Translations under genes and position numbers: made by a program
The notes under the pieces: generated by a model
Told to the model about the DNA's origin: nothing
Seen by the model: only the letters and a program-made list of their open reading frames with translations
The model's database searches: none
Shown: positions 9,117 through 64,000 of the stretch, one piece after another
Layout: every line of letters starts with the position of its first letter
How positions within the stretch are numbered: the stretch's first letter is position 1
NCBI GenBank assembly: GCA_032718475.1
Contig: JAUCBJ010000251.1
Coordinates: forward strand, 1 to 64,000
Length of the DNA: 64,000 nt
Direction: 5' to 3'
From: Nemertoderma westbladi
Taxonomy: Eukaryota > Animalia > Xenacoelomorpha

Positions 9117-9176
9117 AAACTGTTTTCGTTAACCGTGGCATTAGAAACCCTTTCTACAGTCATTATCCCTGAAGTT

Positions 9177-41634: not shown

Positions 41635-42172
41635 TTGCCATGGCAACTGTTTCAAAAACGAGTTTCAAACGCCGATTTTCAGTAAATATCCGAAAAATAT
41701 AAACCCATTGATTAATAATTATTCCCAATTTGGAAAAATCATCTACCATTATAAATATATTTCCCTGAGACCCTCTTGATTCCTATTAGTTTTTTTCAAT
41801 ATTTTGTCATCATTCCAAATGTTATCAGTTACCATGGCAACAGAGACAACTTGAATGGTCGGAAAGTAATTGTCTGGACTTGGCAACATGTAAGACACTA
41901 GATCCAAAATTAAATTTTTTTAGATAGTTCGGAACTATATTAAATTTGGCAGAATATATATTTTAGTGTCTTGTGACCATAGTTACAGGACTACCACAGG
42001 TCCATTTAAATAGGTCCACTACTAGAAATCAAGAGGGTCTCAGGGAAATATATTTATAATGTTAGATGATTTTTCCAAATTGGGAATAATTATTAATCAA
42101 TGGTTTTATATTTTTCGGATATTTACTGAATATCGGCGTTTGAAACTCGTTTTTGAAACAGTTGCCATGGCA
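41635..42172. repeat. About 150-bp near-perfect inverted repeat with about 230-bp spacer
   Basis: 41635-41790 is the reverse complement of about 42021-42172. Confidence 0.92.
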
Positions 42173-43772
42173 AACGGGTTTTACAAATGACGTCAATGGA
42201 ATCTCTGATGCTGATATATGGTCGGTAGGTCAAGGTTAGAAGACTGTAGGTTTATTGGAAAGTGGACTTTTGTAAATGACCTCCTGTTGTCATGGTAATA
42301 TGGGACCGATAAATCCTGTTGCAAGGTTGGTTCCCCTTAAAAAATGAAAGGTATGGAAATTACCTACATCTGTGAAAATTATGGGAAGTTTGTCCAGAAC
42401 GTACACATTAACTTGCTAAGCGACCTGACCAATAGTATATAGAAGGGCGTCGGCGAAGTTAAGTCAAGGGACCACATAGCTCCAGACCATTGTTAATATC
42501 TAGGATATGTGAAAAATGTATGATTACAGTAAGTGTGCAATGAACAAGTTCAATAATAGTTAGTTTTTATATATATTCTGGATTGTACAGAGTAAAAGTG
42601 TTTGTTGGTAACAAGGCGTTCTATAAATACAATGTACTTATAGATAGCCTTGGTTGATAATAAATAAGCATTGTGGTATAATATAGCAATATTTAGAATA
42701 AACAATCAATGGTAGCAGAGCAGACCGACCAATCTTAATCCATCCTTTTAGCCTTAAACAAAAGAAACAGTGTATTCTGTAAATAAAGATGTATTGCGTA
42801 TTGCGTAGCGTGGCAATGCAAAATTTACTATCTAGTGTGGTGGTGTTTCAATGTTTGATCAGAAATATCAGCGAATAAAGAGATTTGGGATGAGTCTCCC
42901 TCCAGAAATTTTGGCCTTTAAATTATTAAGGAGATTGGCTATTTCTAATGAATAAAAAATGATAGTAGTGAATATTCTCAGAGGGACGTTGGACATTTTG
43001 ATTCAACAAGGCGGTATATTCCTCCCAATTAAATAAAAAAAAAAAGAAGACAATAAAAAAAAAATAAAAAAAAGTTACTAGCTAGTAAGAATTATTTACT
43101 AGCTAGCTACCATAAAAAACACTAGCTACCAGCTACCACATGATCTTATATCAGACTACTATATACTAGAATAATACAATTGTAAAGGGTGCAAAAGACA
43201 CAATACAAATCACAATACAAATCTTCAAAATGCAAAGCCCCCCCTGCCAATTAGGTAATTAAGTAATTAGTTAATTACAAATTAATGGTAGGAGATACGG
43301 CATCAGCGCAACAGACTTTTTTCATTTTTGTGCAGAATAAAATTCTGAACAACTTTGTAATGTTACGTTTTTTCATAGCACTTAGTGTTTTCGAGTTACG
43401 ATGCTAATTAGTTTTCAGCTAATTAGTACTAATTAACAGTAATAGGAGGGCCATAGTGATGATTTAACTTTTTTTAGATCGTACCGAGATGAACAAAAAA
43501 AAACACCGTTGCTATGGGAAAAACCAAATACTTTTCGAAAAATATCAATTAGAAATCTTTAATCGCTAATTACTAATTAATTAATTAACAGATTTTTGCC
43601 AAATATTTCTCTGCTGTACGCGCTCTGGTCCCCTATAAGATCGCGAAACAGAATCATTCTAGCTTTTGCCATTCTCCTGGAAAAATCCTTTAAAGATCCA
43701 CCTAAAAAAGATCAAAGCAAAGTGCCTACTTAACAAGGGGTTTGATATAATGCTGTCTTATGGGGTTTTACT

Positions 43773-44582: not shown

Positions 44583-46430
44583 TGATGGTGGTTACTGTTC
44601 TCGTATCTGTGGTGATAATGGTTACTGTTATCGTATCTGTGGTGATAATGGTTACTGTTCTCGTATCTGTGGTGGTTACTGTTCTTGCTATCTGTGGTGG
44701 ATACTGTTCTTACTATCTATGGTGGTTACTGTTCTCGCTATCTATGGTGATAATGGTTACTGTTATCGTATCTGTGGTGATAATGGTTACTGTTCTCGTA
44801 TCTGTGGTTGTAACTGTTCTCGTACCTGTGGTGGTAACTGTTCTCGCTATCTGTGGTGGTTACTGTTCTTTCTCTCTGTGGTGGTAACTGTTCTCGCTAT
44901 CTGTGGTGGTTACTGTTCTTTCTATCTGTGGTGGTAACTGTTCTCGCTATCTGTGGTGGTTACTGTTCTTTCTATCTGTGGTGGTAACTGTTCTCGCTAT
45001 CTGTGGTGGTTACTGTTCTTTCTATCTGTGGTGGTAACTGTTCTCGCTATCTGTGGTGGTTACTGTTCTTTCTATCTGTGGTTGTAACTGTTCTCGCTAT
45101 CTGTGGTGATAACTGTTCTCGCTATCTGTGGTGGAGACTGTTCTCGCTATCTGTGGTGGTTGCTGTTCTCGCTATCTGTGGTGGTTACTGTTCTCGTACC
45201 TGTGGTGGTAACTGTTCTCGCTATCTGTGGTGGTTACTGTTCTTTCTATCTGTGGTGGTTACTGTTCTCGCTATCTGTGGTGGTTACTGTTCTTTCTATC
45301 TGTGGTGGTAACTGTTCTCGCTATCTGTGGTGGTTACTGTTCTTTCTATCTGTGGTGGTGACTGTTCTCGCTATCTGTGGTGGTTACTGTTCTTTCTATC
45401 TGTGGTGGTAACTGTTCTCGCTATCTGTGGTGGTTACTGTTCTTTCTATCTGTGGTGGTTACTGTTCTTTCTCTCTGTGGTGGTTACTGATCTCGCTATC
45501 TGTGGTGGTTACTGTTCTCGTACCTGTGGTGGTAATTGTTCTCGCTATCTGTGGTGGTTACTGTTCTTTCTATCTGTGGTGGTTACTGTTCTCGCTATCT
45601 GTGGTGGTTACTGTTCTTTCTATCTGTGGTGGTAACTGTTCTCGCTATCTGTGGTGGTTACTGTTCTTTCTATCTGTGGTGGTGACTGTTCTCGCTATCT
45701 GTGGTGGTTACTGTTCTTTCTATCTGTGGTGGTAACTGTTCTCGCTATCTGTGGTGGTTGCTGTTCTCGCTATCTGTGGTGGTTACTGTTCTCGTACCTG
45801 TGGTGGTAACTGTTCTCGCTATCTGTGGTGGTTACTGTTCTTTCTATCTGTGGTGGTTACTGTTCTCGCTATCTGTGGTGGTTACTGTTCTTTCTATCTG
45901 TGGTGGTAACTGTTCTCGCTATCTGTGGTGGTTACTGTTCTTTCTATCTGTGGTGGTGACTGTTCTCGCTATCTGTGGTGGTTACTGTTCTTTCTATCTG
46001 TGGTGGTAACTGTTCTCGCTATCTGTGGTGGTTACTGTTCTTTCTATCTGTGGTGGTTACTGTTCTTTCTCTCTGTGGTGGTTACTGTTCTCGCTATCTG
46101 TGGTGGTTACTGTTCTCGTACCTGTGGTGGTAACTGTTCTCGCTATCTGTGGTGGTTACTGTTCTTTCTATCTGTGGTGGTTACTGTTCTCGCTATCTGT
46201 GGTGGTTACTGTTCTTTCTATCTGTGGTGGTAACTGTTCTCGCTATCTGTGGTGGTTACTGTTCTTTCTATCTGTGGTGGTGACTGTTCTCGCTATCTGT
46301 GGTGGTTACTGTTCTTTCTATCTGTGGTGGTAACTGTTCTCGCTATCTGTGGTGGTTACTGTTCTTTCTATCTGTGGTGGTTACTGTTCTTTCTATCTGT
46401 GGTGGTTACTTTTCTCGCTATCAGTGGCGG
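44583..46430. repeat. 25-bp satellite array (about 70+ units) with higher-order structure
   Basis: ctatctgtggtggt(t/a)actgttct(cg/tt) repeated. Confidence 0.97.
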
Positions 46431-46499
46431 TTTAAAAAGTGTAGATGTGCAAATAAAAAGCGTGAAATATGCCATTTTAAAAAAATTAACTTTTGTATC

Positions 46500-47270
46500 A
46501 GGCAATTCAAGTGTAGTATTATGTGTAGAAATATATTAATGTTTTATAATAAATGTATAATTATATGTAGTAATTTTGAATAATAGTGTAGTAATTATTA
46601 AGTAATTAAACAATACTAAGGATGATCCAACTAGTGTAGTAATATATTAATGTTTCTGTGTAGTAATTTTGAATAATAGTGTAGTAAAATATAAATGTTT
46701 TATAATAAAAATACGTAAAATTATGTGTAGTATTGCTTATAGTAATATATTAAGGATATATAATAAATGTATAATTATGTGTAGTAATTTTGAATTATAG
46801 TGTAGTAATATATTATTGTTTTTGAGTTATAATAAATGTATAATTATGAGTAGTAATTTTGAATAATAGTGCATTAAAATATAAATGTTTTAAATAAAAA
46901 TATGTAAAATTATGTGTAGTATTACTTATAGTAATATATTAAGGATATATAATAAATGTATAATTATATCAATAGAAATTTTGAGTAATTTATGTGTAGT
47001 AGTAATATATTATTAATGTAATATAATAAAAATAAAATATATATGTATAATTATAATTATGTGTAGTAATTTATGTGTTATAATCTATGTGAAGCAATAT
47101 ATTTATGTCAATACCCCCCAACAAATATATATAATTACGTGAGATATTATGTGTGGTAATATATTAATGTTATGTAATAAAAAATGACATATATCTATAA
47201 AATGAACAAATGAAAATCTCTAAGAAATTGTATTATAATACATATTATTATAACGATTATTATAATAAAT
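46500..47270. repeat. Extremely AT-rich array of degenerate gtgtagtaat repeats with an about 180-bp duplication
   Basis: tagtaattttgaataatagtg...aaaattatgtgtagtatt.cttatagtaatatattaaggatatataataaatgtataattat occurs at about 46660 and 46850. Confidence 0.75.
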
Positions 47271-48007
47271 AAGAGTTCACTATAGTATATCATATATCAT
47301 CGCTAATATATAATCTTTGTTGGTTGTACCACGCATACGCTAGTCACGCTGTACTGCGCGCTATCTATTATACTGAACGTTTTTACGATTATTGATTACA
47401 CAACTCAATGATTCTTATTTCATCCCCCCCCCCCCCCCCCGCAATCAATTGTACACGTATTTCCATCAACCAACCACATTTAAGATATTTTCTTATTCGC
47501 TGTTTAAGTCTGCTGTCTATGCCACATATTCTAACTTGCATTTGTTCCTAAGGACCACCCTCTTTACAACGATAAAAATAAATCAAGACTCTATTACTGT
47601 AAAGAGGGTGATCTTTAGGGAACAATTGAAAGTTAGTACTAAAAAACGGTGTCAATTTATTACAGCGATACAGTTTAAAATTTTTATCACTTGTAATTTC
47701 ATGGTAATAAATTGACTCCATATATAATTTTTTTAGTTCTCAGTCTGAAATTGTTGTAATTCTTTAGTTATTTCCTTGTTATCCTTATAATTTAATGATA
47801 ACATTAAAATTACTAAGGAAATATCACAATTTAGATCCAACTATGGGGTCAATTGATTACAGCGATACGGTTTAAAATTTATCACTTGTAATATTTTTTG
47901 TATTTATTTATTATTATGGCTTTAACATAAAAAATAGCTGGAAATTTACTTACAATAAATATACTTGCACTGTCATTCACAGCAAGTATTTTATTGTCAA
48001 TTCTCAG

Positions 48008-48978
48008 GATGACAACGAAACAATCTGTTTTTCTCATCAAGATACCCGCTATTTGCTGGACATTCTAGAAACAACAAACAATCAACATAAATCCAGACCA
48101 CCAATTATACCAGGTAGGATATATCCCACTCTTCGTTTTGCGCGAGGAAATTTGAATATATCGATCAATCCCACATCGGGTGATGTTTACATTCAGAAAC
48201 ATGGCAAATGTAAACTTCTAAACAAAGCTTTTACCGAAGTTCTCATTCAATACAGGGGGAAATTATTGCAATTTCTCTCTCTCATCCGCTAGAGATTATT
48301 GGCAATCAGTTTTACATTGAATTATCAAATCCAGAGTTTATTGGATTTGTAACAGCTTTTAAAGGAACCAACTATGTCGGCTTATGGTAAATCACCCTCA
48401 GATATGTTGATAGTGTAGGTTTTAGTTATTATACGGGTTTCAATTTGACAAATCAGGAACTAACCGCTTTGTTGAATGAGTGGGATACGCAAATCAATGA
48501 AACAAACAAGCATCTTTTTGAAGATTTTAAAAATATCATTCAACTATGAGACCGTCTCAAAATGATTAAATCTGATAAAAAAATTATTATTACCAACACC
48601 GATAATCCTACAGAAGTGGGAGCAGCCAGAAATTCTATTGAGATGCATTACTTGAATGATAAAGCCCATATTAGATTTCTCAAAGAAGCAATGGATGGTG
48701 TTTCTCTTACTGAGGCTAATGTGGATGGTTTTGTCATTTTGGATAAACCTAAAGCATTCGTTGAGATTCCATCACCAAAACCAGATGTTGAAGAGAGTTG
48801 TTCTCAACCGCAACATGTCTTTCCTGAAATATTACCACGGAAGCCGAGATCGTCAAGTAAATTAACCAACGCAACAGCTGCAAAGAAACAGAAAGTTGTT
48901 GTTACCTCATTTCCAGTATATGAGGCTAATAACTTTACTTCGAAACCTGAGTTCATGCCTGGATACCCTTATTGGTGA
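48008..48978 (+). pseudogene. PC4/Sub1-like ssDNA-binding protein gene, decayed (frameshift near 48290, two stops)
   Basis: Hand translation FIGFVTAFKGTNYVGLW*...YYTGFNLTNQELTALLNEWDTQINE resembles the PC4 core; it reads in frame into ORF 48562-48978 (basic AKKQK tail). Confidence 0.5.
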
Positions 48979-49106
48979 TTGGCAATTGATTTAAAGTTAT
49001 TTCGCTCGGTAGCATATAAATGTTTAGATATAGTCAATAACATTTCATTTTATTTTAATCTTTTGTGATATTTTATTATTATTATATAATCTAAACAAAC
49101 TTCAAC

Positions 49107-52100
49107 ATGGATAAAATAGTATTGTGTTGTTCATTCTGTCATATGAATATAACTAGACATAATTATTTACGATGCCTAAAGTCACATTTTGAAGTTTATT
49201 CTTGTTTTAATTGTCATGTTACGACTTCATGCAGTGAAATTTGTAAACGACATGAATCAACTATGGGTTGTAAAGAAATGAAGTTTCGCACCTATCAATT
49301 GACTTGTCCTACTTGTAATAAAGGATATTCATCTGAGAATTATTTACCTCACGACTGTCACTTGAAATGTTAATACACAAGAAAGCATAAATCACCGCAA
49401 CATAAGAATATAATATCTAGAAAAAACTTAAGACTGGTTCTTGGCACATGTGCAACAATTTTTACATGGGAACAAGCCGCTCACGATAATCGTCTTGAAA
49501 TTTATGTCCACGACCTCCCAACTTCTAGAGATTCAGTTAATATTAGACAGATTGAAAGAAATGAATGTTCTTAGACTGTGGTTAGGTCTAAATGAATTAA
49601 TGTACAGAACACATTTTTCAGAAGGTGAGCAATTAGAAACCTTTTATTTTAATTCTTCCAGTGGTGCTATTAATACTGTAGATTCATCATCAGAAAGTTT
49701 TGATATTTGGTTTGAGTATATATGTTTTAGAAAATATATTACAAAAAATAGACATGTTTAACATACGTGGTTCAGGGTGGCGCATTAAATCTTTATTAAG
49801 AGTTGAAATTAAATTAGCTGATTCTAAGTGTAGGTCGTTACTATATAAGGGACATGGATATATGGAATTACCTAAGGTTCTATCGAGTAAACGATGTACA
49901 ATATATATACAAACGGCTGATAATGACTGTTTCAAATGGGCTATTATAACTGCAAAATTTAGTAGCAAAGTGAAAAACTACAAAAACCATTCTTCGTCGT
50001 ACAAAAATTATATGAGTCATTTCATTTTTGACAACGGGAAAAATGATTATCCAACAGAGTGGCAGCTAGCGATTAAACTTTTTGAAAAACAAAATTCTAA
50101 ATATATAATTAATTTACTATGTTGGAATAACAACAATAAACGGACCCCCGTATCTATATTAAGACAACCTCTGTTTAGTAAAATTACACCAGATAAAGAG
50201 TTATTAAATATATTACTTATAGTAAAAAATAACAATGTACCTAAACTGAATCATTATGTTTGCATAACTAACTTGAATCGATTGCTGAATACGAGAGCTC
50301 TTCATATCCACAATAGCCAATATTGTGAACGATGTTTAGGGCATTTTTTTCGAATGGAAGTTCTCCAACGACACCGTCTCGCCTGCTACCAAGGAAGAAG
50401 TCAACGAGAGAAACTACCTAATAAAAAAAGAACACACATAAGTTTTACAAATTTAGATAGAACCTTATCCCCATTGTTTGTCACCTACTTTGATATAGAA
50501 TGTATCTTACAACCCTCAGTTAATAATCAATTTATACAGGAGCATATACCGTGTGCTGTGAGTTATTTAATTGTTCCCAATAGTGAATTAATTGATCCTC
50601 CAAAATGTCATTTGAAAACATTCGTATAGTCAAATAATAATAATAATTGTATTCAAGATTTCTTAGATTCATTAAATTCAAGAATAGATTAAAGAAGATT
50701 CAAGAAATACACGGATTGGGATATAAAGGTTATACCGAGAAATACAGAACGATATATTTCACTGAGCGCATTTATCCCAATTAAAAACACTTCTAAAAAA
50801 AATTGAGTTATGTGTCTTAGACACATATCAATTTTTAAGCTTTTCCCTAAGTAATTTAGTTGAGTGTTCAACAAAAGATGTAGCGAGTCATGATATAAGC
50901 TCAATTTTACCTATTACTCTACAAGAAATGAAATATTTTTATCCAAACTTGAATAACTCAACAATTAATCGGAAAGGAGTATTTCCAAACAAGTACTTGA
51001 CAAATATAAATAAATTTAATGATACAGGTTTGCCATCTATAAATAATTTTTTTAGTAACTTAAGTCAAAAAACATGTACAATTGAAGATTATAGGTTTGA
51101 TGGATTATCATGGGTAGAATTCGACTGTGTGAATCTCAAAGATTATCTTTTAGCCTATTTAAAACTCAATGTTTGTTTGCTTGCCGATATATTTGAGAAT
51201 TTTAGGAATGTTTGTAAACAAAATTATGATTTAGAAGTGGTTTTTTACTGTAGTATCGCATCATTTACCTATGATTGCGCTCTAAAATATAATAAATGTA
51301 AAATAGAATTAATAAAGGATTAGCAGACATACAGAGATTTTGAAAAATCAATTAGGGGTGGTGTTTCATTTTGTCGAAAGCATTATATAGAATCAAATAT
51401 ACCCGAAACAAGCACATATGATTCTACTAAGGAAGAATGCCATATTTTTAATATTGATTTCAACTCTTTATATTCTGGGAATTTAAGTAAAAAACTACCC
51501 ACCTCATAATTCAAAGAAGTAAGTATTAAACATTTAGAGAATGCAATTCCAGAAAAACTAATCGAGTACTTGGTAGATTTAGTCAATGACGGATCTACTG
51601 GATATTTTTTAATATGTGATTTAAATTACCCCAAAGCTATTCACGATCAAACATTACAATTACTGTTAGCCCCAGAGGATTTAAGTATAAATGAATCAAT
51701 GCTTTCACCTTATATGAGGGAACAATTTAATAACTTATCGATACAAAGAGGCACCACCGGTAAATATAAGATGTCTACTCCAAAACTCTTGCTGACACAA
51801 TTTGATAAAGAATTTTATCATTTACACTTAGAAACTGTTAAAATTTTATATAAAACAAGGATTAATTGTTACTAAACTACATAAATTATATTCTTTTCAA
51901 CAAGAATTTATATTTAAAAATTACATAGATTTTAACATTAATCAAAGGCGACTAGCAAAAAGTTACATTGAAACGGCTGTCGCAAAGCTGCTTAATAACT
52001 CTTTATTTGGTAAGTCAATAGAAAAGATACGGGACCGATGTAACTTTCGTATCGCAAATAGCAATGATAAATGCGACCAATTGGTGAATCGTATTAATCA

Positions 52101-54463
52101 TGAACAATTTATAATATACAATAATACATTATCGGGTCATTTATTAGTGAAAGACTCAGTAACTCTCGATAAGCCTATATTTATTGGTAGCGCGGTGTTG
52201 GATTTGGCTAAACTTGATATGTATGAACTGTATTACAATAGATTACTACCTATTGAGAAAGAATTAAACTGCCGTATTGAAATTGCTGCATCAGATACAG
52301 ACTCATTAATAGGTTGTGGGGCGAGCCACGAAGTGAGTGAGCCTTAGCGTAGTGGTACCATTAATCAACCTGTCGTTCTGTCGTTCTGTCGTTCTGTCGT
52401 TCTGTCGCGTTCAATTTTAAACGTTAATAACTCGGCCAATCTTTTATGAAATCTATCCAAACTTGGTACACATGTTGTTTTGCAAAAGTTTATAAATTTT
52501 CCAAGTAGAATTTCCGTGTGGCCTTCGAGAAGCTAAGATAATAGCAGTTAATTAGTTAATTAAGTTGATTATGGTAAAAACACCATTTTCAACCTGCCTT
52601 TTAAAGGAAATTAATTGTTTTACAGTATAAGATTTAAATAATTATACTTAAAAATTATACAGATGTAATCCACATACGCCATTCTATTATAGTTTTAATT
52701 AGTTCAAGTGATTTGCTTTAATAATTGTGTCCTTAATTGATCTAAAGTATTTAAAATGGCGTAAAAAATTGATTCTCATTAAATACTGCTCATTTATTGG
52801 CCAACATGCTGGTACATAGATGGAAGGATGTGTGTTAAGGCAGCCAGTTGCTGGGAATGATTATTGGTCAAGTCTCTGCTGGTGTGGACTAGCTGGGAGT
52901 TGTGGCTGTAGACTAACCAGAGAGGAATTGTAATAGGCAACCAGTATTGCTATTCCAGCCCAGACAGCATTCTTTAAATCCAACATCCCAACATTGACTC
53001 TACTATAAGTGTTGTATTGCTATCTCAGGTAAATGACAGATATAATAACATAAATACCATCCATGGCATGGCTGTTGTAGGCTTCTGAAATAGTTTATTC
53101 CACAATGTATATGTCTGGTTATTTTTTAATTGAATTTTTGCAAAGTAGTAAAATTAATGTTCTTAAAAATAATATTATTATTTTATATGTAACCTGGGAA
53201 ATTAGCTACATTTTTTCGCTGCAGCTTTAAGAGTGTACATTGATTTAATATTATTTCAATACCCATATTACTACATCGGCATAAGATGCATTGGCGTTGT
53301 ATCACACATCTCCACATATCACACATCTCCACATAGATGTATCAACAGTTACTCGCACAGTTTCGAAACTTCGCATAGTTATAACTGTATAAAGATCGTC
53401 AGTCTGCGTTTAGGAAAAATATTTTATGACAAAACAGGACAAGCGACGAGCGCAACGAGGCATATAATGAAGACGAGTACTGCGTTGACTAAATTATTAT
53501 ATAAACCACCTGGCTTCACATATTGATCGCATCCCTAGTTATTATTATTATAAAGATCGTCCTAGCCTGCGTTTAAGAAATATATTTAAATACAAAACAG
53601 GACGAACGCAAAGAGGCTTATAATGAAAACGAGTACTGCGTTTATTATATTCCTATAAACCACCTGGCTTTGCATATTTAACATGCGATTGGAAATAAGT
53701 TCGTGCTACCCTTCCGTGGGTGGTAGATGTCGCGGTTATGTATTGGTGGTTGGGAAGGGTGGGGGGGGGGGGGGAGAGATTAAAAGGGGTGAACACATAC
53801 TGTCCCCCTTTCTTTGATTGATTGGCGGTGTGGGTAAATTTCTCAAAACCTGATTTTGTGATACAGTCACTCAATTTTAATTTGTATCTAATAACTGGGC
53901 CTCGTGCTGCGCGAAGGCCCCACGAACGAGTTATTATAATACATCGCAGAGTAATTTTTAAAAGCATTAATTAAAAATAATATTTTAGATATATCCAATT
54001 ACCCTCAGGATCACCTGCTTTATAGTAATAAAAATAAATCGAGACTTTATTACTGTAAATATGAACTAGCCTCACGTGAAATTAAACAAGCAGTATTTTT
54101 AAGACCAAAATTATATTCAATTTTGGAATGGAATAACAGAAATATTCGCAGAGCAAAAGGTATTACAAGAGCTGTTGTGGAAACGAATATTACTCATGAA
54201 GAATATTTAAAAGCATATAACTCAAATGAAGAAATAAAAAAAAAAACATACACAGATTTCAATCTAAATTACATCGTATTTATACCTTAAAGCAAAATAA
54301 ATTTGCACTCAGTAGCTTTGATGATAAACTTTATTGGCTTAATAAAAATCAATCACTTCCTTGAGGACACTATAAAACAAACCTCAAAAAACCTATAAAA
54401 ATATCAAATATACCAATTTATGAAGAACCGAAAGATGATGGTGAATTATCAAATAGTAAATAA
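49107..54463 (+). pseudogene. Protein-primed DNA polymerase B (Polinton/Maverick/adintovirus type) with N-terminal C2H2 Zn fingers; disrupted
   Basis: GSGW, GYMELP, DNDCFKWAI, HYVCITNLNRLL, YCERCLGHF, YFDIEC (ExoI), IKVIPRNTERYIS, RKGVFP, LLADIFENFR, SIRGGVS, DFNSLY (motif A), KLLNNSLFGK (motif B), SDTDSL (motif C), LRPKLYS, RAKGI, LSSFDDK. Confidence 0.93.
52307..53933 (+). mobile_element. Helentron/DINE-1-like non-autonomous element, copy 2, inserted just after the polymerase DTDS motif
   Basis: (ctgtcgtt)n near the 5' end, subterminal inverted gtggggc/gccccac, 3' stem-loop gggcctcgtgc..gcgaaggccc; polymerase sequence resumes after it. Confidence 0.8.
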
Positions 54464-54941
54464 AAATATAAGTTGTAAGCAGATCATTTCTGGACTTAAT
54501 TTAAAAGAATTAAAAAATCAATTGACAGGTAAAATTATACTCAAACCTAATCAGTTTATATATAAGGTATTTGGTGCAACCTTATTAATGTTTACAAATG
54601 GACAAATAACAATTCTTGGTAGAAAATATAATTTTAATAAAGTTAAAAAGCATATATTTGAAAAAACAAACATTAATTTGATTTTTAAATCTATCAATTT
54701 GTGTACTTATATTTTTAGTATTGACACCGTAATCTATAGGTTACTTATAAACAATATCGGGTTTTATGTTATATTTGATAATGTTAAACTAGAAATTTCA
54801 TATGAGCCAGAAATATTCAATAACTGTAAAGTCAGAATAAATAATATTGTTGTTATTTGCTGTTTCTACACCGGTAAATGTACATTAATGTGTTCTCCGT
54901 TTAAATTTCAAATATATATTATCCTATATTCAACAAACTGA
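54435..54941 (+). CDS. Divergent TATA-box-binding-protein-like ORF
   Basis: Two TBP-like half repeats: IVN...LNLKEL...ATLLMFTNGQITILG and SYEPEIF...VICCFYTGKCTL; about 168 aa, the size of a TBP core. Confidence 0.72.
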   Translation: MMVNYQIVNKNISCKQIISGLNLKELKNQLTGKIILKPNQFIYKVFGATLLMFTNGQITILGRKYNFNKVKKHIFEKTNINLIFKSINLCTYIFSIDTVIYRLLINNIGFYVIFDNVKLEISYEPEIFNNCKVRINNIVVICCFYTGKCTLMCSPFKFQIYIILYSTN

Positions 54942-55977
54942 TTAATAATTTATTATTGTTTGGTGGAGGGTTTTTGATGTAAAATATAATTAGAAAGAGT
55001 GAAATTTATTGTTGTTGTTTGGTGGTGGAGATTTTTTACTGTAAAATATATATATATTAAATTGAGGGAGAAGAAATTTATGAATATTTTTTAAATCAAC
55101 AACTAGTTGGGGAAACTAACTAACTTCAGCAGAGCGATTGCTTGTAACAGCCTAGTATGCATAGTATACCCAGAGACAGTAGCTAGCTAGCTAAGCATCG
55201 CACGAGTGAGCTACAGTTGCGCACGCATCTGTTACTTATGACTGTGTGCAGCGAGCATCGCTAAGCTCGTTGAGAAAAGTTTAGGGCTATGTACTGGTAT
55301 TCATAGTCAAAGTCGAAGCCCTCCTATCTGTTACTAGCCCGTATACATATTATTAAAACATCGGCTATGCATTTCCCTACATTCAGAATAGAATAGAATA
55401 GAATAGAATAATGAACAGAGCATATATCACTAATCCGCATGGGAAAAGTTTATGTTAGGCATTTTGTTAACTATGTGAATTTTGTAATGTAAACATCTGC
55501 GACCCTCTACAAAAATATATATAAACTCAATTTTTCTAACAGTGAACTATAATTTTGTTAACCAAAATAAGAAAAAAAAAATACCGGTATACTCTAGCCT
55601 ATACTATACTATATTATAATCATAACCAACCTGTAACAGTAAAATGACAGCAAGTGTGACAAGTTGTTCTATGAAATTCGATCTTGAAGCTGGTGATGTA
55701 TACCTTCAAGCGGCAAATATAGTCGACATTAGTAGGTCAGTCAGTCAGTTAGTCAGTATCGATAAATCTCTCTCATTACCGGTACCATTTATAAATTGGT
55801 TGCTGTTGCGGTTGTGGTTATGAATGTGTCACAACAACATCATTATCATCTTCTTCCCATGGGTTGTTTGGGGGTAACATTGGATTTGTTATACCATCCT
55901 CCCAATTTTCTTGAGAAATTATACCGGTATCGCATGTATGAATTTCGCTATCGCCGGGTTGAATTCTCACATTTAAT

Positions 55978-58175
55978 GTGAAATTTTTCATTGTTTTAAA
56001 ATCCATTATTTCGTTTCCTCTTAAAATTAATACCGGCTTACCTGGAAACGTAACCACTGACAGTAGATCCATTGCAAATATTCTAAACAAACATTTCTCT
56101 ACCATTGGACCCCAATTAGCTGAGCAAATTCCGAAAACTAATAGAAATCCAACACGCTTCATAAAAAATTGTAATTACAAATCGTTTTGTTTAATAGAAC
56201 CATGTGAGACCGAAATTCTCTATTTTTTACTTGATACAGACAACCACGTTTCAACATATGATGAATTTCCGGTCTACCTGGTAAAATTAGCAGCTCATAC
56301 GATAGCCCCCCACTTAACTCATTTAATTCAATTATCCGTCATAAATGGTTTTTTTCCAGATTTACTTAAAATTGCAAAAATAATCCCAGTTTTTAAAACT
56401 GGCGATCCCACGGATAAAAATAATTACCGCCCCATTTCGATATTACCGCCTTTCACTAAAATATACGAGCGTGTTATCAACTCTCAACTACTGGCATATC
56501 TAAACAAGTTCGATTTACTTTCCCCTGCACAACACGGATTCCGAAAACATATAACGACTACAGATGCTATACTAACAGTTACGGAACAAATACAGGAAAC
56601 ACTAGACAACCAGAGCTCCGCCTGCTTAGTTTCAGTAGATCTCAAGAAAGCATTCGATACCTTAGATCACTCCATATTACTGCAAAAATTAGAATGTTAT
56701 GGTATACGCGGCCTCCCACTTAAATTGTTAGCCAGTTTCCTTGACAACCGATCACAAGTAGTTAATATTAACGGTTTTAATTCAGACTCCGTTAAGTACA
56801 CCCTGTGGAACCCCACAGGGTGGAATATTATCACCGCTTCTATTTTTAATTTATATTAATGATTTACCGAACTGCACAAAATTAATATCAACACTTTTTG
56901 CGGATGACACTACACTACTATTCTGCCACAAAAATACAAACACACTTATTTCTACAGTTAACACGGAATTACAGAAACTAGACAGCTGGTTAACAGACAA
57001 CAAACTATCTTTAAACTTAAAGAAAACGGAATATATCATCTTTGACAATCACAACACCACTACCACAATTCCCACAGTCAACATCCGTTCTATACCATTA
57101 ACGAAAACAACATCAACTAAATTCTTAGGAGTCTACATCGATAACCATGTAAATTGGATGGTTCACTGTAAATATATTTTGTCAAAAATCTCGAAACTAA
57201 CCGGCATCTTCTATAAATTACGTCATATACTACCACTTTATATACTTAGAACCCTATATTTTGCACTCGTACACCCACACATTCTTTACGGTATTATACT
57301 TTGGGGTAACAGCTACAATTCCTACACTAATAAAATTAAAATAAAATTAAATAAGATACTCCGAGCAATAACGTTTAGCCACTTCCAATCCCATGCACCC
57401 CCGATATATAAATCCTTAAAAGTTTTGCCACTAGATAAACTATTTGAGCTGGAAGTTGCGAAATTTATGTTTGATGTTAAAAAATGCAATAAAACAGACG
57501 CACTAATAAATATGTTCAAACCAATATCTGCAGTCCATCGGTATAATACTCGTTCGGCATTAACTCAAAAATTTTTCATCCCCCGTGTCCGATTACAAAT
57601 ATCCCAACAATCAATAAAATTCTCTGGCCCAAAAATATGGAACGATCTACCCCAGGAAATAAAAAATTCGAAGTCCAGAAAATCCTTAGCTACTACGTTA
57701 AAAAAATATTATCTAGATAATATATAATGTTATAACAATAAAGTATTTATAGAATCTTATCCGGCAAGTCAAGTCAGTTTCCCCACCACCAGTACATCAA
57801 CAACACGTTTTCATGATATCTCATTAAAATTAAACAAATTCACGCTGAAAATTTATTCTACCGAGTATCCCCCGCACCCCCCCCCCCCCCCCCCCCACCC
57901 CCGCACCCCCCCCCCCCCCAATCACCAGATAATATGTGTACAATTTATTTAGCACATAACGGGTGCCAAACTAGCTTCGCTACGGCAATCCGCTGGTGCA
58001 ATTCAATTTATATCATTCAAACTTATCCTGTTGTAATAATATCTGTATATTGTGTATTGATAAAAGACATTGTATTGTTAATCGTGATAATTGTAAGTAT
58101 AATATTGTATTGTCATCATAATATTGTCTGCTGTGAGATTAAATAAAGGGCCGGGCCTTCCCGGATTGAAATTGA
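55978..58175 (+). mobile_element. 5'-truncated CR1/L2-clade LINE (RT, frameshift near 56800)
   Basis: KIAKIIPVFKTGD...NYRPISILPPFTKIYE, QHGFRK, DLKKAFDT, GTPQGGILSPLLFLIYINDL, LFADDT, KFLGVYID, YGIILWG, HRYNTR, GPKIWNDLP; stop at 57727; (ttgaaa) tail. Confidence 0.92.
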
Positions 58176-58565: not shown

Positions 58566-60572
58566 TTATTCTGATTCGTAGTCTGAACTTGAATCATTTG
58601 TGGACATTATTTTGATTTTTTGTTTAGCCTCTTTAGCTGCTAAACGCTGAGGTCGTTCCATTGTTTTGATATCAGTCGGGGAAGCAGCTGGTTTTGGTGT
58701 AACATTCGCCGCTGTTATTTCACTCTCTTTAGCCGTAATTTCTAAAGGGTATAATCGTTTAACTGGTCTGGTTGTCCGCCCTTTATTGGTTCTAATGGTA
58801 ACGTAACGAGTCTGGCCGTCGTTTCCAGGATGAAGTTCTAGAACCTTGGCTAATCTCCACTGTAGTCGAGGGGTGTGTTTGCTTCCTTCCACAAGAACAA
58901 TGTCACCCTCTTTTACTTGGGGTCCCTTTTTCTCGTTCCATCTATGCTGTTCACGTAATGCCAATAAATACTCGGCAGACCAACGATTTCTGAAATCCCG
59001 CAATATCTTCTGTAAACGGTTTAGACGATCGTTTATATTGGAGGTATTAATATAATCAGGATCCAAAAGATCGCCAATATCTGGATTACTGTCCGGAATA
59101 TCAGTTAACCTATAACCACATAGTAATTGAGATGGTGTAATTGGTAGTAGGTCTTTGATATCGGAAGATACATAGGTTAGAGGTCTGTCATTGAGTATCG
59201 CCTCAACCCCTATAAGAAACGTTCTGAGTTCGCTAATAGTAAGTAACGCCTTTCCAATTACGCGTTTTATTGTAAGTTTTGTACAACGAATCATCCTTTC
59301 CCACATACCGCCCATCCAAGGGCTGGCCTTAGGAATAAGATCCCATTTTAACCGCTTTTCCAGCAGGTAGTCGCGAACCATAGGATCTTGTTGAATATTT
59401 AGTAGAATTTGTCTGGAAGAAGTGAAGGTGGTTGAATTATCACTTATTAGAATGGATGGGTAACCTCTTCTTCCAACAAAGGAACGGAAGGCTAAAAGAA
59501 ATTCCAATGTTGAATTATCGAGAACCAATTCAAGATGAATAGCTCTGGAAACAGTGCATGTAAATAGGGCAATATAAACCTTGAATACTTCTCCATTTTG
59601 TTTTGCTGCTAAACTTCCTGTATAATCAACACCTACAGCTGAGAAAGGACGTTGAAATTGGACTCTGTAGTTAGGAAGTGGAGGAGGTAATGGAGACGCG
59701 TAAGGTTTACCTTGAATCCTAAGGCATTGTTCACATTTGCGAATCATAATTTTCACGCGTTGTCTACTAGATGGTATCCACCATCTTTGTCGAAGATATG
59801 CAACAGTACTAGACGTACCCTCATGACCATTCCTACTGTGAGCATCTCGGATAATAAGATCTGTAAGATAGTGTTTCTTCGGTAATAATATGGGCTGCTT
59901 GGAATTCCAATCCAAATCAGCATTGGATAATCTCCCATTGCTCTTTATAATATCGTCACTTAGAAATAACTGTAACTGTCTTACAAGAGTTGGAGTGTTA
60001 AATTTATTTTTGCTCAACAAAAATTCGATTTCCTCCCCAAAACTTTCCCGCTGAACTTTACGAATCCACCAATGCTCAGCTGTTTTGATGTCTTTCACTA
60101 ACAAATATGGCTTCTGTTTGGTAATTCTCGTATCAGAATTACTATGCATAAGAATGCTGCCAACTTGTTGATGTTTTAATAAAATACTTTTTCGAATGTT
60201 GTCGATGTATTTCAAAATCCATGCAGTTACCTTCAACAGACGACTGTAACTGCTAAATAATTCCAAATTTATTGCTACTGGTTCAACTTCCGGAGGGTTA
60301 GAAGATTCTCCAACTCCGCATACTACATCAACATCATTGTCCATAGTCTTGCATTGGAGAGACAACACCTTCTGTTGTGGCCAACTGGAATGATTCATTA
60401 ACCATGGCGGACCGTGCCACCACTGGTCAGAAGATAACAAATTGTTAGCTGTTGTCCCCCTTGAAATAAGATCAGCTGGATTTTCAATCCCTTTAACATG
60501 AAATACCTTTGCCTCAAACTCAGAGATAATATGATTACATTCTGTTACCCTCGCCTGTACAAAAGAATTCAA
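58566..60572 (-). CDS. BEL/Pao pol, RNase H tail and integrase portion
   Basis: NPADLISRG, HSRNGH...CEQC, PFSAVGVDYTG, RAIHLELV, SDNSTTF, SPWMGGMWERMI, LNDRPL, GRTTRPVKRLYPLE. Confidence 0.9.
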   Translation of the reverse strand: MNSFVQARVTECNHIISEFEAKVFHVKGIENPADLISRGTTANNLLSSDQWWHGPPWLMNHSSWPQQKVLSLQCKTMDNDVDVVCGVGESSNPPEVEPVAINLELFSSYSRLLKVTAWILKYIDNIRKSILLKHQQVGSILMHSNSDTRITKQKPYLLVKDIKTAEHWWIRKVQRESFGEEIEFLLSKNKFNTPTLVRQLQLFLSDDIIKSNGRLSNADLDWNSKQPILLPKKHYLTDLIIRDAHSRNGHEGTSSTVAYLRQRWWIPSSRQRVKIMIRKCEQCLRIQGKPYASPLPPPLPNYRVQFQRPFSAVGVDYTGSLAAKQNGEVFKVYIALFTCTVSRAIHLELVLDNSTLEFLLAFRSFVGRRGYPSILISDNSTTFTSSRQILLNIQQDPMVRDYLLEKRLKWDLIPKASPWMGGMWERMIRCTKLTIKRVIGKALLTISELRTFLIGVEAILNDRPLTYVSSDIKDLLPITPSQLLCGYRLTDIPDSNPDIGDLLDPDYINTSNINDRLNRLQKILRDFRNRWSAEYLLALREQHRWNEKKGPQVKEGDIVLVEGSKHTPRLQWRLAKVLELHPGNDGQTRYVTIRTNKGRTTRPVKRLYPLEITAKESEITAANVTPKPAASPTDIKTMERPQRLAAKEAKQKIKIMSTNDSSSDYESE

Positions 60573-60623
60573 GGGTTTTAAAGATAAAAGCCAGCGTTGA
60601 GATATCTCGCTATCAGTACAAAG

Positions 60624-62936
60624 TTAAAACTTTGGTAATAATCGCATGTGTCCATAAACATTGGATACATATGATAATAACCGCAATCCTAAGTTAAGTG
60701 CTGTTAGTTCCATTTGCGACAAAGTTAATGACTCCATAGATGATTTTATCGACTTTTCAATTAAAGCTTGTTTCTTTATAGGAACCACTTTCGATTTCGA
60801 TATGACTAATTCCGGTTTATGAATATCATCGACAATATAAATAACGGAACCATAGGCTTTACTTGAAGCATCTGTAAAAGCATGAAATGAAGACTGAGGC
60901 GAAACCGAAAGCAATTGGCGTTTAATATTGCAATTAAAAATTGCGTGAAGATCGTTGGAAATTATTTCCCATTCATCCCTGAAACTGCCGTGTAGATTTT
61001 CGTCCCACATAACCTTTGCTTTCCATAGCCCTTGAATAAAAATTCTCGATTTTATTCCAATAGGACCAAAAATTCCGAGAGGATCGAAATACTGTGCAAC
61101 ATGGCTAACTATGATACGTTTTGTTAATACATCCGATTTCATAAATGGATGAGATTTGAATTCTAGAATGTCTTGCGAAAAATTACATTTCAATCCAAGG
61201 AACTTTATGACTGGTTTAGAATGTTTCGGAGTATCACCATTGTCTATTATGACCTTTGATAATTTGGGACTGTTAGTGACCCATTCTCTTAGAGGTAGAT
61301 TAGCATCGGTAAATATTCTCTTACAGTCATAATAGTATTGAATTAGATTGGTTTCAGAGTCAAATGTTCCCTGTAAGTTATCAATATATAAATTTCTCAA
61401 AATCTCATCTATTATGGGATGAGAATAATTGTTTAAATGTTCACGAATTGTTGCACCCAAAAGGTAAGAACTACAAGTCGCACCAAAAAGGACAACCATG
61501 AAACGATAAGTGTTGAATTTACTTTTTGGATCGATAGGATTTGCAGGCCACAAAAACCGGGTAACATCTCTATCAGTTTCATTTAGGCGAATCTGTAAAA
61601 ATGCATTTTCAATGTCTGCAACAACTGCAAATGAACCAGTACGAAATTGCAAAATGCACGAAATAATGTTCGGTGTAAAACAGGGACCGCTGTATAAACA
61701 ATCATTCAAACTAGCACATTTTGGACCAGCTTTTGCAGAACAGTCATAAACTATACGCAATGGAGTTGTAGTTGATTCTGGTTTAGCTACACCATGGTGT
61801 GCTAAATAATGTACTTTATCAGGTAAAATATTATTATCACACGGAACCAGTTCAATAAATTTACGTTGCAATTGGTCTGTAATAATATTATTGTAAACTG
61901 AAAGTAGTTTCGGTGTCTTACGTAATTTAGCCAAGGTACTTGCTAATCTACGTAATGCTAAATTATAGTTTGATGATAATTTCGGATGATTTGGACGCCA
62001 TGGAAGTCCTACACAATATCTACCATCAACGAATTGTAAAGATTTAATAAAGTTTGTATGCACATACTCATCTATAGGACGATTGATATTTTCTGTACTT
62101 ATACCGATACTGTCTAAATCCCACAATCTACTCAACATGTTATCTAGTTTGGTTTCACTATCATTATCTACATTATAATTTGCACCAATGGAAATTAAAC
62201 ACATAGTGGTTGTGTTTACCGTAGTGCTAGTATTCACACTAGAATATGGAATTCTACCTGCGATGACATCACCTAGCACAGATGGTACGCAATATAAACC
62301 ACTAGATAATTGCTGTGCGGGTACAAATTCAAAATAATAATCAATGCCAATAATAATCCCGATATCTCTTAAATCATCACCAATAATTGGATCGGCCAAT
62401 AGTAATCCTTTAATATCTGCCCCTTTCAAACTACGTGTGCGACCAGGTATAAAAAAGCGTGGAGGTAATCTATCTACTATAAGCGCACGGACTTCTATAT
62501 CTCCTACCTTTGTGGATACTACAAATTGCACAATATCATACCATTCTAATTTACCGTCAGTATTAATGCCATCAATACCAGTACATTTTTTACCCACTAT
62601 AGGTAGTTTGAGCAACGCAGCTAAATCTCTTTTAATTAGACTACGTTGGGAGCCGGTATCTAATAAACTTCTATGTTTACTAGTAGTTTTATTTTCACAT
62701 ATTATAGGCATATATGTTGTTGGTATAAGAGAAGCATATTTATCGTCATTAGTTATTACACTTATCTTATTAGTAGCTACAGTAGAAGATACAACTTGTG
62801 GATCAGAATCTGAATTAACAGTTTCGTTTGATGTCGCAACATTACACGTATAATTTTGTTTGTCACTAGAATGATTTTGAGATCCTTTTACCTCGGTTGT
62901 AATTGCTGGAAGAATTACCTTTAGAATGGTGATCAA
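60624..62936 (-). CDS. BEL/Pao pol, protease, RT and RNase H portion
   Basis: LLDTGSQ, GRYCVGLPW, SLNDCLYSGP, DRDVTRFLW, FGATCSSYLL, FDPLG, FTDAS. Confidence 0.9.
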   Translation of the reverse strand: MITILKVILPAITTEVKGSQNHSSDKQNYTCNVATSNETVNSDSDPQVVSSTVATNKISVITNDDKYASLIPTTYMPIICENKTTSKHRSLLDTGSQRSLIKRDLAALLKLPIVGKKCTGIDGINTDGKLEWYDIVQFVVSTKVGDIEVRALIVDRLPPRFFIPGRTRSLKGADIKGLLLADPIIGDDLRDIGIIIGIDYYFEFVPAQQLSSGLYCVPSVLGDVIAGRIPYSSVNTSTTVNTTTMCLISIGANYNVDNDSETKLDNMLSRLWDLDSIGISTENINRPIDEYVHTNFIKSLQFVDGRYCVGLPWRPNHPKLSSNYNLALRRLASTLAKLRKTPKLLSVYNNIITDQLQRKFIELVPCDNNILPDKVHYLAHHGVAKPESTTTPLRIVYDCSAKAGPKCASLNDCLYSGPCFTPNIISCILQFRTGSFAVVADIENAFLQIRLNETDRDVTRFLWPANPIDPKSKFNTYRFMVVLFGATCSSYLLGATIREHLNNYSHPIIDEILRNLYIDNLQGTFDSETNLIQYYYDCKRIFTDANLPLREWVTNSPKLSKVIIDNGDTPKHSKPVIKFLGLKCNFSQDILEFKSHPFMKSDVLTKRIIVSHVAQYFDPLGIFGPIGIKSRIFIQGLWKAKVMWDENLHGSFRDEWEIISNDLHAIFNCNIKRQLLSVSPQSSFHAFTDASSKAYGSVIYIVDDIHKPELVISKSKVVPIKKQALIEKSIKSSMESLTLSQMELTALNLGLRLLSYVSNVYGHMRLLPKF

Positions 62937-64000
62937 AGTTACTACTTTTAGTACTTTGATCTAAATGTAATAACGTGTGATGTTTTTTGCGACATACAGA
63001 ACATACACCAGAACTAGGACAAATCTCACCATTTGCATGTTTACGAAAACAATTTCTGCACAAATGTAATTGTTTAGTACGCATAAACTTATCATAGGGC
63101 AAAATATATTTATCACAATTACGCACTACATGATTACCTTGACATAAGTAACATTTAAAGGCCGGTTTCTGTTACTCACACTTTGAGCTACGGGTATTGA
63201 TGTTGCAGTGCCACCGTGACGCAGCGCAACACTTTACTATTAGAGCAGATTATCTCGTCATCAGAATCTGCGTTGGCGCGTAACTGTTCAATTTCTTTCT
63301 GCAAGGCAGCGCGCAATGAATCCAGCTGCCAATATGTGCAATTGGCAGCTCTGTTAATGTTGTTCCGCACATCAGCAGGCAGCTTACGCATTAACAATGC
63401 GGCGTAAACGTAGCCGGCCGCATCGACGTCAGCGCCCAAATTCTTTAGAGCCCGTAAATGCGACTCGTACGAAGCCCGAAAGGTTGATAAACCTTGAACA
63501 GTTCCTGCAGGTTAATCCATGTCGAAAAACGCATGTAACCGAGCCTGTACCAGTGACTCAGTATTCCCGTAAGTTTCAATTAATAGTTTGACAGCATCTG
63601 CATAATCAGAGTCTGTTCGATGAAAACCGCCTAATAATTCGGACGCTTGGTCACTAAGACAACCGGTTAGGTAATTAAATTTCGTGGCATTACCAAGATC
63701 AGTTCGATCGTGAACAGCGTCACGAAAACGATCCCAGAATTCGGACCACTCGAACACCTTACCTGAAAATTGTGGCAAGTTGAGGTTGGGTAGTTTATAC
63801 TGTTTCGTTGGAGTTAGCTGATACCCGCCATGGCTGTTGTTTGGGTTTGTAAATATGGCACCATGCTGTCCATAACCACCAACGTCATCAATAACGGAAG
63901 ATGTATTCGTAGCACCTACAGCAACCAGTTGTGCTGTTTGGAGCAGTTTTGCGATGTTTTCGTCATAGCGACTGACTTCATCGTCCCCGGTTTCTGTCAC

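Follow-up and report, generated by a model that had tools for sequence, protein, structure and literature searches.

The window, i.e. the whole 64-kb stretch of DNA analyzed, contains a block of three AT-rich coding regions that all run in one direction (GC 0.36, 0.30 and 0.25), as the sequence-only reading had described. These are a broken ORF, the gene of a protein-primed PolB (pPolB) split by a 1.6-kb insertion, and a TBP-like ORF whose in-frame ATG codons (54,420, 54,435 and 54,438) all precede the pPolB stop codon, so that the two genes overlap (Table 1). The locus abuts a LINE fragment and has retroelements on its flanks.

Table 1. Features of the block and of its immediate surroundings
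Feature	Positions	Strand	Basis
Fold-back hairpin, arms of pPolB-like coding sequence	47,531–47,636		Sequence match, DNA folding
Broken ORF upstream of pPolB, PC4-like by motif resemblance alone	48,008–48,978	+	Translation
pPolB 5' part, decayed, Alpha class	49,107–52,315	+	Translation, Pfam, homologues, tblastn cover
1.6-kb non-coding host repeat, directly after the DTDS motif	52,316–53,929		Second copy, insertion-free joint; ends uncertain by up to ~10 bases
pPolB 3' part (thumb region), interrupted by frame changes and by a stop ahead of the terminal one (54,461–54,463)	53,930–54,463	+	tblastn to reference pPolBs, translation
TBP-like ORF, ~170 aa, two TBP half-repeats	54,420–54,941	+	Pfam, Atlas, blastp, alignment, model
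Multicopy stretch 3' of TBP, short ORF from ATG 55,646	55,432–55,731		Depth 0.44–0.94 of cassette

The pPolB gene and the ORF upstream of it

The protein-primed nature of the polymerase is confirmed by a match to Pfam DNA_pol_B_2 (PF03175) at 51,835–52,344 (E = 4.6e-6); 29 homologues were found with identities of about 30–45%, and five reference pPolBs align collinearly to the window from ~49,730 to 54,390 (tblastn). The 5' part comprises, in this order, (i) a Cys/His finger region, (ii) an OTU-like region, (iii) exonuclease I, (iv) a deletion, (v) exonuclease III and (vi) the Pol I–III motifs. The finger region (49,107–49,370) matches the N-terminus of the pPolB of a relative, L036 (E = 0.009), in agreement with the N-terminal zinc finger noted at first sight, and such fingers are normal within the clade of the window pPolB; the N-terminal piece matched none of 1,445 longer candidates in the homologue search. 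The OTU-like region was recognized by eye from its Cys and His motifs, the assignment being based on motif positions and on the relevant parts of PMC11161782 and PMC8502044 (section 7).

Several stops and frame changes interrupt the 5' part. Moreover, ~105–135 reference residues, corresponding to the endonuclease-VII insert and the exonuclease II region, are absent at ~50,680–50,710 (tblastn), where a public-run contig goes on with a different sequence. The 1.6-kb insertion is real, since the window contains a second copy of it at 31,656–33,150 (79–88% identity) and the insertion-free joint (52,315 to 53,930) is present in all four public runs. It contains an 8-bp microsatellite in tandem array (52,370–52,407) and 10-bp inverted repeats (52,425–52,434 and 53,927–53,936), and by its anatomy is presumably Helentron/DINE-1-like. 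The view that this is an endogenised, virus-like pPolB element with a TBP-like gene, and that the copy is dead, holds.

The upstream ORF, which has a high read depth in the public runs, shifts frame once, near 48,280, and is broken by in-frame stops at 48,388 and 48,547. The PC4 identity proposed for it was not confirmed: Pfam PC4 (PF02229) does not match, and three profile tests were not significant. With our own PC4 profile, the region ranks third of 3,079 chunks (E = 0.81); with a second profile, 62 of 1,000 shuffles score as well as the region; a two-sequence profile found nothing. A Pfam-positive PC4 gene (E = 1.2e-14) adjoins a more distant pPolB, in locus L041. The PDB matches of the upstream ORF (phmmer, E 0.012–0.24 over ~65 residues) were weak and redundant, all to a C-terminal stretch in a single bacterial neurotoxin chain, and were put down to chance.

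The TBP-like ORF

The identification of the last gene as TBP is upheld by Pfam TBP (PF00352), which matches it in two stretches (E = 3e-6, 27.4 bits for a cut-off of 22.9). The ORF has no N-terminal extension, and the last helix of its second repeat is unrecognizable. It is assigned at 0.95 to TBP clusters in the ESM Atlas, blastp against a local set aligns it with the TBPs of four related loci (L008, L010, L011 and L012; E 7.5e-6 to 1e-4), and its best PDB match to cellular TBPs has an E-value of 0.077. A model built from an alignment, whose fold match depends in part on the TBP-like homologues used to build it, retrieved TBPs as the top three VIA-align rows with middling Z-scores (6.5, 6.2 and 5.7 over ~75 residues); its first repeat has a pLDDT of 60–80 and its second repeat is not confidently modelled. 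Foldseek gave no match to this model at E ≤ 0.001, the highest probability (0.63) going to an archaeal TBP, and the single-sequence AlphaFold model has a pLDDT of 33. Altogether, the profile and model comparisons support a TBP fold, with two repeats and saddle topology, in this ORF. Note that searches of large databases were blank (none of 35 candidates; nothing at E ≤ 0.001 in a set of 1.84 billion representatives), which we ascribe to a limit of sensitivity because small local searches recover the relatives.

The window TBP and all six TBPs of related Polintons have in common a short, headless form and the loss of the first-repeat 'KRF' phenylalanine of microsporidian TBP; in the alignment, the other three phenylalanine positions keep Phe. 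The phenylalanines at these positions are the DNA-intercalating ones of TBP.

Affinities with Polintons and the putative role of TBP

In a quick tree, from which 11 matches with fewer than 250 aligned residues were left out, the window pPolB lies on a long branch within a clade of 38 rows (SH-aLRT 99) that includes elements with TBP and integrase and a sea-spider pPolB. It groups, long branches being flagged, with integrase-bearing Polintons and not with L001, a bidnavirus-like contig carrying PolB and Parvo_NS1. According to section 7 of Starrett et al. 2021 (PMC8502044), Alpha PolBs are recognized by their strong similarity to bidnavirus PolB, and section 8 gives PLA2 as a hallmark of the Alpha virion module. 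In pairwise comparisons with the L001 PolB, the window pieces gave E-values of 1e-19 and 1e-21 and the in-clade relatives E-values of 1e-35 to 1e-70; PLA2 genes were found in the relatives. A Beta-class label was dropped on these two tests, and the similarity to bidnavirus PolB, together with the N-terminal OTU-like region, places the window pPolB in the Alpha class.

TBP genes were found in six of the 63 related loci. All four in-clade loci that reach an rve-chromodomain integrase (L010, L011, L026 and L036) contain both TBP and a packaging ATPase, and three of the four have a capsid-like cluster, the capsid label being a weak Pfam Capsid_N match below the cut-off (E 0.007 and 0.033). The relatives also display an endonuclease-VII insert in pPolB and an ATPase of the FtsK/A32 type, and L036 has a C48-type protease. 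In L008, L010, L011 and L012, PLA2 and a small ORF lie between pPolB and TBP, whereas in the window TBP overlaps the pPolB stop. When searched against the viral contig collection, the window pieces gave no match, and in the genome contig collection they found only two short pPolB contigs.

The sequence-only reading had taken TBP, together with PC4, as the mark of a separate capsid-less family. This idea is not supported, the closest pPolB clade holding ordinary Polintons with TBP; what that reading had itself named as contrary evidence, a normal Polinton gene set, is largely borne out by the four loci with integrase. In these clade relatives, TBP occurs alongside an rve-chromodomain integrase, a packaging ATPase, PLA2 and genes of capsid-like type. 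The reading as an undescribed capsid-less replicon is unsupported, and a truncated Polinton piece, rather than a novel plasmid devoid of capsid, is the likely reading. We conclude that the locus, a decayed cassette of pPolB and TBP-like genes from a multicopy element family, is probably what is left of the early genes of an Alpha-class Polinton/adintovirus, the integrase and virion genes having been cut off here. It adds a far-diverged, dead and truncated member, and no new class. Note that the window element is far from every relative (34–45% identity), on a long branch, and that the gene set of the relatives need not apply to it.

In three of the loci with TBP, the motif ATAAAC occurs on the sense strand at most 90 bases upstream of many genes (8 of 12 in L010, 7 of 13 in L011 and 7 of 10 in L026, for antisense counts of 0, 2 and 0, respectively), an enrichment reached by none of 300 dinucleotide shuffles in each locus, with the proviso that the boxes were found post hoc and that L008, L010 and L012 are close kin. 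ATAAAC precedes the integrase gene in all three loci, the ATPase gene in two, the capsid-like gene in both loci that reach one, and also the TBP gene of L010; it is absent upstream of the L011 pPolB. L036 has a box of its own, A(C/T)GCAAA, before 5 of 12 genes. TAAGA did not emerge as the enriched motif in the loci analyzed. In two TBP-less controls, both incomplete contigs, ATAAAC precedes none of eight genes (L043) and one of seven (L052). In the window, it precedes none of the three genes, and a copy at 55,521 stands 125 bases ahead of a further ORF. The combination of TBP with a lineage-specific box suggests that, in the relatives, TBP may drive a late-gene switch.

To our knowledge, Polintons have no RNA polymerase. 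The pPolB family copies linear genomes by protein priming, and in an intact element the pPolB would do so, perhaps with the PC4-like protein encoded upstream serving as a putative single-strand binder. With TATAAAA at −64 and −41 as a canonical TATA-like site, TBP would be expressed early. Judging from the relatives, we slightly favour the view that TBP would next bring host polymerase II to a box, specific to the element, before the ATPase, integrase and capsid genes. Since its integration, the present copy has acquired the 1.6-kb host repeat, the internal deletion, the stops and the frame changes. A comparable case is KSHV ORF24, a beta/gamma-herpesvirus TBP mimic, which has a virus-encoded TBP fold with TBP-like phenylalanines and steers host Pol II towards a variant late box (PMC12529657). 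This activity resembles the role that we only infer for the Polinton TBP; ORF24 is large, has several domains and acts together with further viral factors, whereas the Polinton TBP consists of a bare ~170-aa saddle. With a bare TBP and a lineage-specific box before late-type genes, the clade would offer a one-protein switch that lends itself to direct tests and has its counterpart in the herpesvirus TBP mimics.

Alternatively, the TBP-like gene could be a passenger or a general helper, i.e. a host or giant-virus TBP that was captured and acts through ordinary TATA boxes, or else a decoy, with host factors reading ATAAAC. This is possible but rather doubtful. ATAAAC is indeed close to TATAAA and is missing upstream of the window genes, and TBP is common in giant viruses: a TBP profile found four loci in the viral contig collection, including one with TBP beside an NCLDV capsid gene (L064); none of the four matched the pPolB, integrase or capsid-like probes, and they were left out of the count of relatives. 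However, one type of TBP, headless and Phe-altered, is found again in various members of a diverse clade, the box varies with the TBP lineage, and the herpesvirus TBP mimics work on late promoters (PMC12529657).

Copy number and extent of the element

The block belongs to a multicopy family in the host. It is covered by thousands of contigs at 90–99% identity (three DNA runs, two samples), and single contigs reach depths of ~8,000–12,000, versus 15–45 for the lowest-depth contigs, bearing in mind that summed depth does not equal copy number. An episomal-only explanation of this depth was set aside, many variants being less than 95% identical and levels being similar in the two samples. Depth falls at ~47.9 kb and at 55.1/55.7 kb (relative to the median, it is 0.3–7% in bin 47,200 and 1–2% at 55,726), edges that fit a terminus or a truncation alike. 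Terminal inverted repeats and a target-site duplication of 5–8 bp were not found around the block, as expected if the copy is truncated, nor in the clipped relatives. The multicopy stretch 3' of TBP matches none of the relatives' profiles and may be another part of the element that the neighbouring LINE has severed.

The same data could reflect a host family that is itself a reduced, high-copy derivative of ~6–8 kb (PC4-like, pPolB, TBP), which would have lost integrase and virion genes family-wide and would replicate as a linear pPolB element, full Polintons providing integration or packaging in trans. The thousands of similar contigs cover exactly the block, depth dropping on both sides, and its three early-type genes form one tight block, unlike in the relatives. 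As first noted, no integrase or capsid is in view: when the six frames of the window were searched with profiles built from the integrase, ATPase, capsid-like and PLA2 proteins of the relatives, nothing was found, while the TBP profile matches 54,480–54,887 (iE 1.8e-6). Integrated PLVs without detectable integrase are described in PMC11296320. We nevertheless consider such a family unlikely: a truncated copy would produce the same drop in depth, terminal repeats and a target duplication were not detected at the block, the segment 55,432–55,725 is back at cassette-like depth, a TBP serving late virion genes in the relatives would be of little use once those genes are lost, and TBP accompanies the integrase in every in-clade locus that reaches one. 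It is equally improbable that a Polinton family has shrunk in this host to an early module of a single-strand binder, a protein-primed polymerase and a private TBP, present in hundreds of near-identical copies that lack an integrase or capsid of their own, self-replicating, helper-dependent or plasmid-like, and still steering host transcription. If the host family were truly capsid- and integrase-free, and only then, it would be a new kind of element. Finally, the chance juxtaposition of a Polinton pPolB remnant and an unrelated host TBP retrocopy, for which the flanking retroelements might speak, is very improbable and already largely refuted by the common depth profile and by the relatives: the TBP-like ORF overlaps the pPolB stop, both share an AT-rich composition and a depth that is uniformly high across their junction, and this TBP is distant from those of cells and can be aligned with those of Polintons.

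Alpha adintoviruses, or Polinton group 2 (PMC8502044; see Jeong et al. 2023, PMC10748475, for the pPolB2-type with an HNH insert), have, like the window, an OTU-type pPolB related to bidnavirus PolB. The window copy differs from them in showing no integrase, ATPase, protease, capsid or terminal repeats, in the deletion of the endonuclease-VII region, and in its overlapping TBP-like gene, TBP not being given as a family trait in these two papers. The legend of Fig. 5 in PMC8502044 places a TBP label in a 'MELD virus or related element' with an adintovirus-like PolB; this element, known from the legend label alone, resembles the window in combining pPolB and a TBP-like gene. That label is the only mention of TBP in such elements that we found in the published literature, and the examined text of PMC8502044 gives neither a function nor a promoter box for it. 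Bidnaviruses and linear pPolB plasmids share with the window a protein-primed PolB that sits on a short unit of linear type lacking integrase, but neither parvovirus NS1 or VP nor an RNA polymerase or terminal repeats turned up in the window.

Lastly, in the arms of the hairpin located 5' of the block, 57 bases are 82% identical to 54,003–54,059, and the predicted DNA folding of this hairpin (z = −7.3) was equalled by none of 200 shuffles.

The cassette genes

The cassette holds three AT-rich coding regions, all co-directional. The middle one encodes a protein-primed PolB (pPolB; Pfam DNA_pol_B_2, E = 4.6e-6) with 29 homologues at 30–45% identity, and five reference pPolBs cover it collinearly in tblastn. 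It is broken by frame changes and stops, has lost ~105–135 residues at ~50,680–50,710 (the endonuclease-VII insert and the exonuclease II region) and carries a 1.6-kb insertion 3' of the DTDS motif, in agreement with the sequence-only reading of a virus-like polymerase gene in a dead copy. The inserted sequence is a host repeat in its own right: a second copy, 79–88% identical, lies elsewhere in the window and the insertion-free joint is present in all four sequencing runs.

The last ORF, whose start overlaps the pPolB stop, had been read as TBP-like, and this is borne out by a Pfam TBP match over the cut-off in two stretches (E = 3e-6), an Atlas score of 0.95 and an alignment-based model: the first repeat is confident and its best three VIA-align matches are all TBPs (Z 6.5, 6.2 and 5.7), with no firm fold assignment by Foldseek on the model. 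Canonical TATAAAA sequences lie at –64 and –41 of the TBP start, a placement that would be expected of an early gene.

The first ORF resembles a tandem PC4 by eye. It has no Pfam PC4 match and failed three profile tests for PC4, so that its proposed identity as a PC4-like SSB stays tentative. PC4 does occur near a related polymerase: L041, a locus outside the clade of the window pPolB, carries a two-domain PC4 gene (E = 1.2e-14), and the model of a Nymphon striatum pPolB has a weak N-terminal PC4 match (E = 0.023). In L041 the two-domain gene lies with a Bcl-2 homologue (E = 6e-15) downstream of the pPolB (4778–6849). A 252-aa ORF of PC4-like look, lacking a Pfam match, lies directly upstream of the L036 TBP gene and overlaps it (L036:8810–9743). 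A conserved family of 150–175 aa, nameless in Pfam and OB-fold/SSB-like by eye, occurs twice in L011 (13037–13486, 17674–18138) and in L018 (4609–5133) and L019 (4920–5366).

Relatives and class of the element

Searching with an alignment of 13 close pPolBs yielded 61 metagenomic and two viral loci. TBP genes are found in 6 of the 63 (L008, L010, L011, L012, L026 and L036) and encode 167–205 aa; the four that were scanned have Pfam E-values from 1e-13 to 1e-23. The L008 and L012 contigs end directly after TBP; in L010, L011, L026 and L036 it is accompanied by genes for a packaging-type ATPase and an rve-chromodomain integrase. A 418–428-aa cluster is common to three of these four; it is a candidate major capsid, to which Capsid_N matches below the cut-off point weakly (E = 0.007 in L010, 0.033 in the L018 member). 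L036 also encodes a C48-type protease. TBP thus accompanies the integrase in four of seven loci overall and in four of four within the clade; it was not found in the out-of-clade integrase loci L043, L044 and L052, which are incomplete contigs. The Polinton-like L043 also carries cargo deoxynucleoside kinase and NADAR/DUF4326 genes (5925–6593 and 9840–11387).

In a quick IQ-TREE analysis using one unjoined window frame (54 rows, 11 hits left out), the pPolB of the window sits on a long branch within a 38-row clade (SH-aLRT 99), which also holds the TBP-bearing relatives and the Nymphon pPolB. Alpha-class adintoviruses are defined in PMC8502044 (Starrett) by bidnavirus-PolB similarity and PLA2 genes; by these criteria the clade classes as Alpha, judging from strong matches to the PolB of a bidnavirus-like contig and from its PLA2 genes. 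C2H2 fingers at the pPolB N-terminus are common across it, and the relatives' endonuclease-VII inserts recall the HNH insert of pPolB2 (Jeong et al., PMC10748475). PC4, TBP and fingered pPolBs all occur among the related loci, so none of the three cassette genes marks a separate family, contrary to what had been suggested for TBP and PC4.

When the six frames of the window were searched with profiles built from the integrase, ATPase, capsid-like and PLA2 proteins of the relatives, none matched, whereas the TBP profile did find the TBP-like ORF; the absence of integrase and capsid noted earlier is therefore upheld. It would suit an endogenised capsid-less replicon, as first proposed. The polymerase clade and the relatives joining TBP to integrase and ATPase point instead to a Polinton, and we consider such a replicon unlikely. 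The element works as Polintons do and is probably one of them; this membership rests on the polymerase clade and the relatives, the window copy itself showing no integrase, capsid gene or termini. The locus is a dead and probably truncated member of the TBP-bearing Alpha-class Polintons.

A TBP label for a gene of such an element appears in PMC8502044 (Fig. 5 legend) and its bioRxiv version. The available parts of PMC11161782, PMC11071296, PMC11296320, PMC11131425 (including section 8 and the small supplement), PMC10748475, PMC13215967 and the main text of bioRxiv 10.64898/2026.10.13.758929 do not mention TBP or PC4, and titles and abstract openings outside subscription journals yielded no paper on a Polinton TBP or PC4.

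Three of seven pPolBs of 1,050–1,099 aa (P0022, P0023, P0025, P0026, P0043–P0045) were placed in the tree and group with the bidnavirus-like L001 (SH-aLRT 100); the Logan contigs that carry the seven are of nearly equal length (6,275–6,539 bases) and may be complete segments from a bidnavirus-like group not yet described. Two IMG/VR contigs of 47–49 kb encode ~875-aa viral proteins with one weak TBP domain each (L066:9446–12073, Pfam E = 7e-6; L067:9488–12112), reminiscent of herpes-type TBP mimics.

Promoter boxes and a proposed late-gene switch

De novo counting in the relatives, with motifs chosen post hoc, gave ATAAAC, which lies on the sense strand within 90 bases upstream of 8 of 12 genes in L010, 7 of 13 in L011 and 7 of 10 in L026 (antisense: 0, 2 and 0), an enrichment matched in none of 300 shuffles for each locus. 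It precedes the integrase and PLA2 genes in all three loci, the ATPase gene in two and the capsid-like gene in both loci that reach it; in L011 it is not upstream of pPolB. L036 has ATAAAC before none of 12 genes and A(C/T)GCAAA before five, including the capsid-like and integrase genes. In the control loci L043 and L052, both incomplete contigs, ATAAAC precedes 0 of 8 and 1 of 7 genes.

All seven element TBPs (window and six relatives) are headless and lack the first-repeat Phe of the cellular 'KRF' motif, keeping the other three Phe. This would suit a changed box. Intact elements replicate by protein priming, insert by means of the integrase and form particles. An early block of SSB-like protein, pPolB and TBP would be followed by late genes that TBP switches on via a private box, much as with the KSHV TBP mimic (PMC12529657), the role of the element TBP being an inference. 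This is the most likely model; its TBP-driven step is given slightly better than even chances, and such a switch would speak for a virion module in the family. The value of the finding lies in this testable TBP/box switch more than in the locus itself.

Copy number and surroundings

Coverage was taken from three DNA runs (two samples, one organism) and a fourth, low-depth run with another label. The block is covered by thousands of run contigs, many 90–99% alike, and single-contig depth reaches ~8,000–12,000 in two runs against 15–45 in the lowest-depth contigs, depth not being copy number. In the simplest reading, the cassette belongs to a large multicopy family. At several of the breaks in the window copy, or close to them, high-depth contigs read differently; the lesions are therefore likely not shared by the whole family. 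Relative to the cassette median, depth is 0.3–7% at 47,200–47,493 and 10–27% at 55,138–55,431, returns to 44–94% at 55,432–55,725 and is then 1–2% at the LINE start. Neither terminal inverted repeats nor a target duplication could be found around the block, and its depth edges agree equally well with truncation of this copy and with a short family.

The window comes from an animal-like genome rich in repeats. Upstream of the cassette it has a minisatellite and degenerate AT-rich repeats; L011 likewise has AT-rich 72-bp repeats, a few kilobases before its pPolB. The run contigs point to a second pPolB subfamily in N. westbladi that has diverged from the first. The first hairpin upstream of the cassette may be a fold-back product, or else a source of small RNAs.

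Features of the window and the basis of their labels
Feature	Position	Basis or remark
Penelope-like RT + GIY-YIG element	5,770–8,331	By eye from translation
RecQ/WRN-like helicase ORF	13,724–16,642	GC-rich, intronless; by eye from translation
Second copy of 1.6-kb insertion	31,656–33,150	
Srg/7TM receptor	39,835–41,058	Intronless; Pfam
MITE-like repeat	41,635–42,173	156-bp inverted repeats, 97% complementary, 227 bases between arms
25-bp minisatellite	44,649–46,432	71 copies; 324-bp higher-order period
Degenerate AT-rich repeats	46,495–47,200	After the minisatellite
Imperfect hairpin, first	47,531–47,636	DNA z –7.3; both arms pPolB-like coding sequence
50-bp repeat copy	47,648–47,697	After first hairpin
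Imperfect hairpin, second	47,748–47,832	DNA z –4.2
50-bp repeat copy	47,845–47,892	After second hairpin
Cassette	48,008–54,941	
LINE RT pieces	55,963–57,727	Pfam
BEL/Pao-like LTR element	58,566–63,511	By eye from translation
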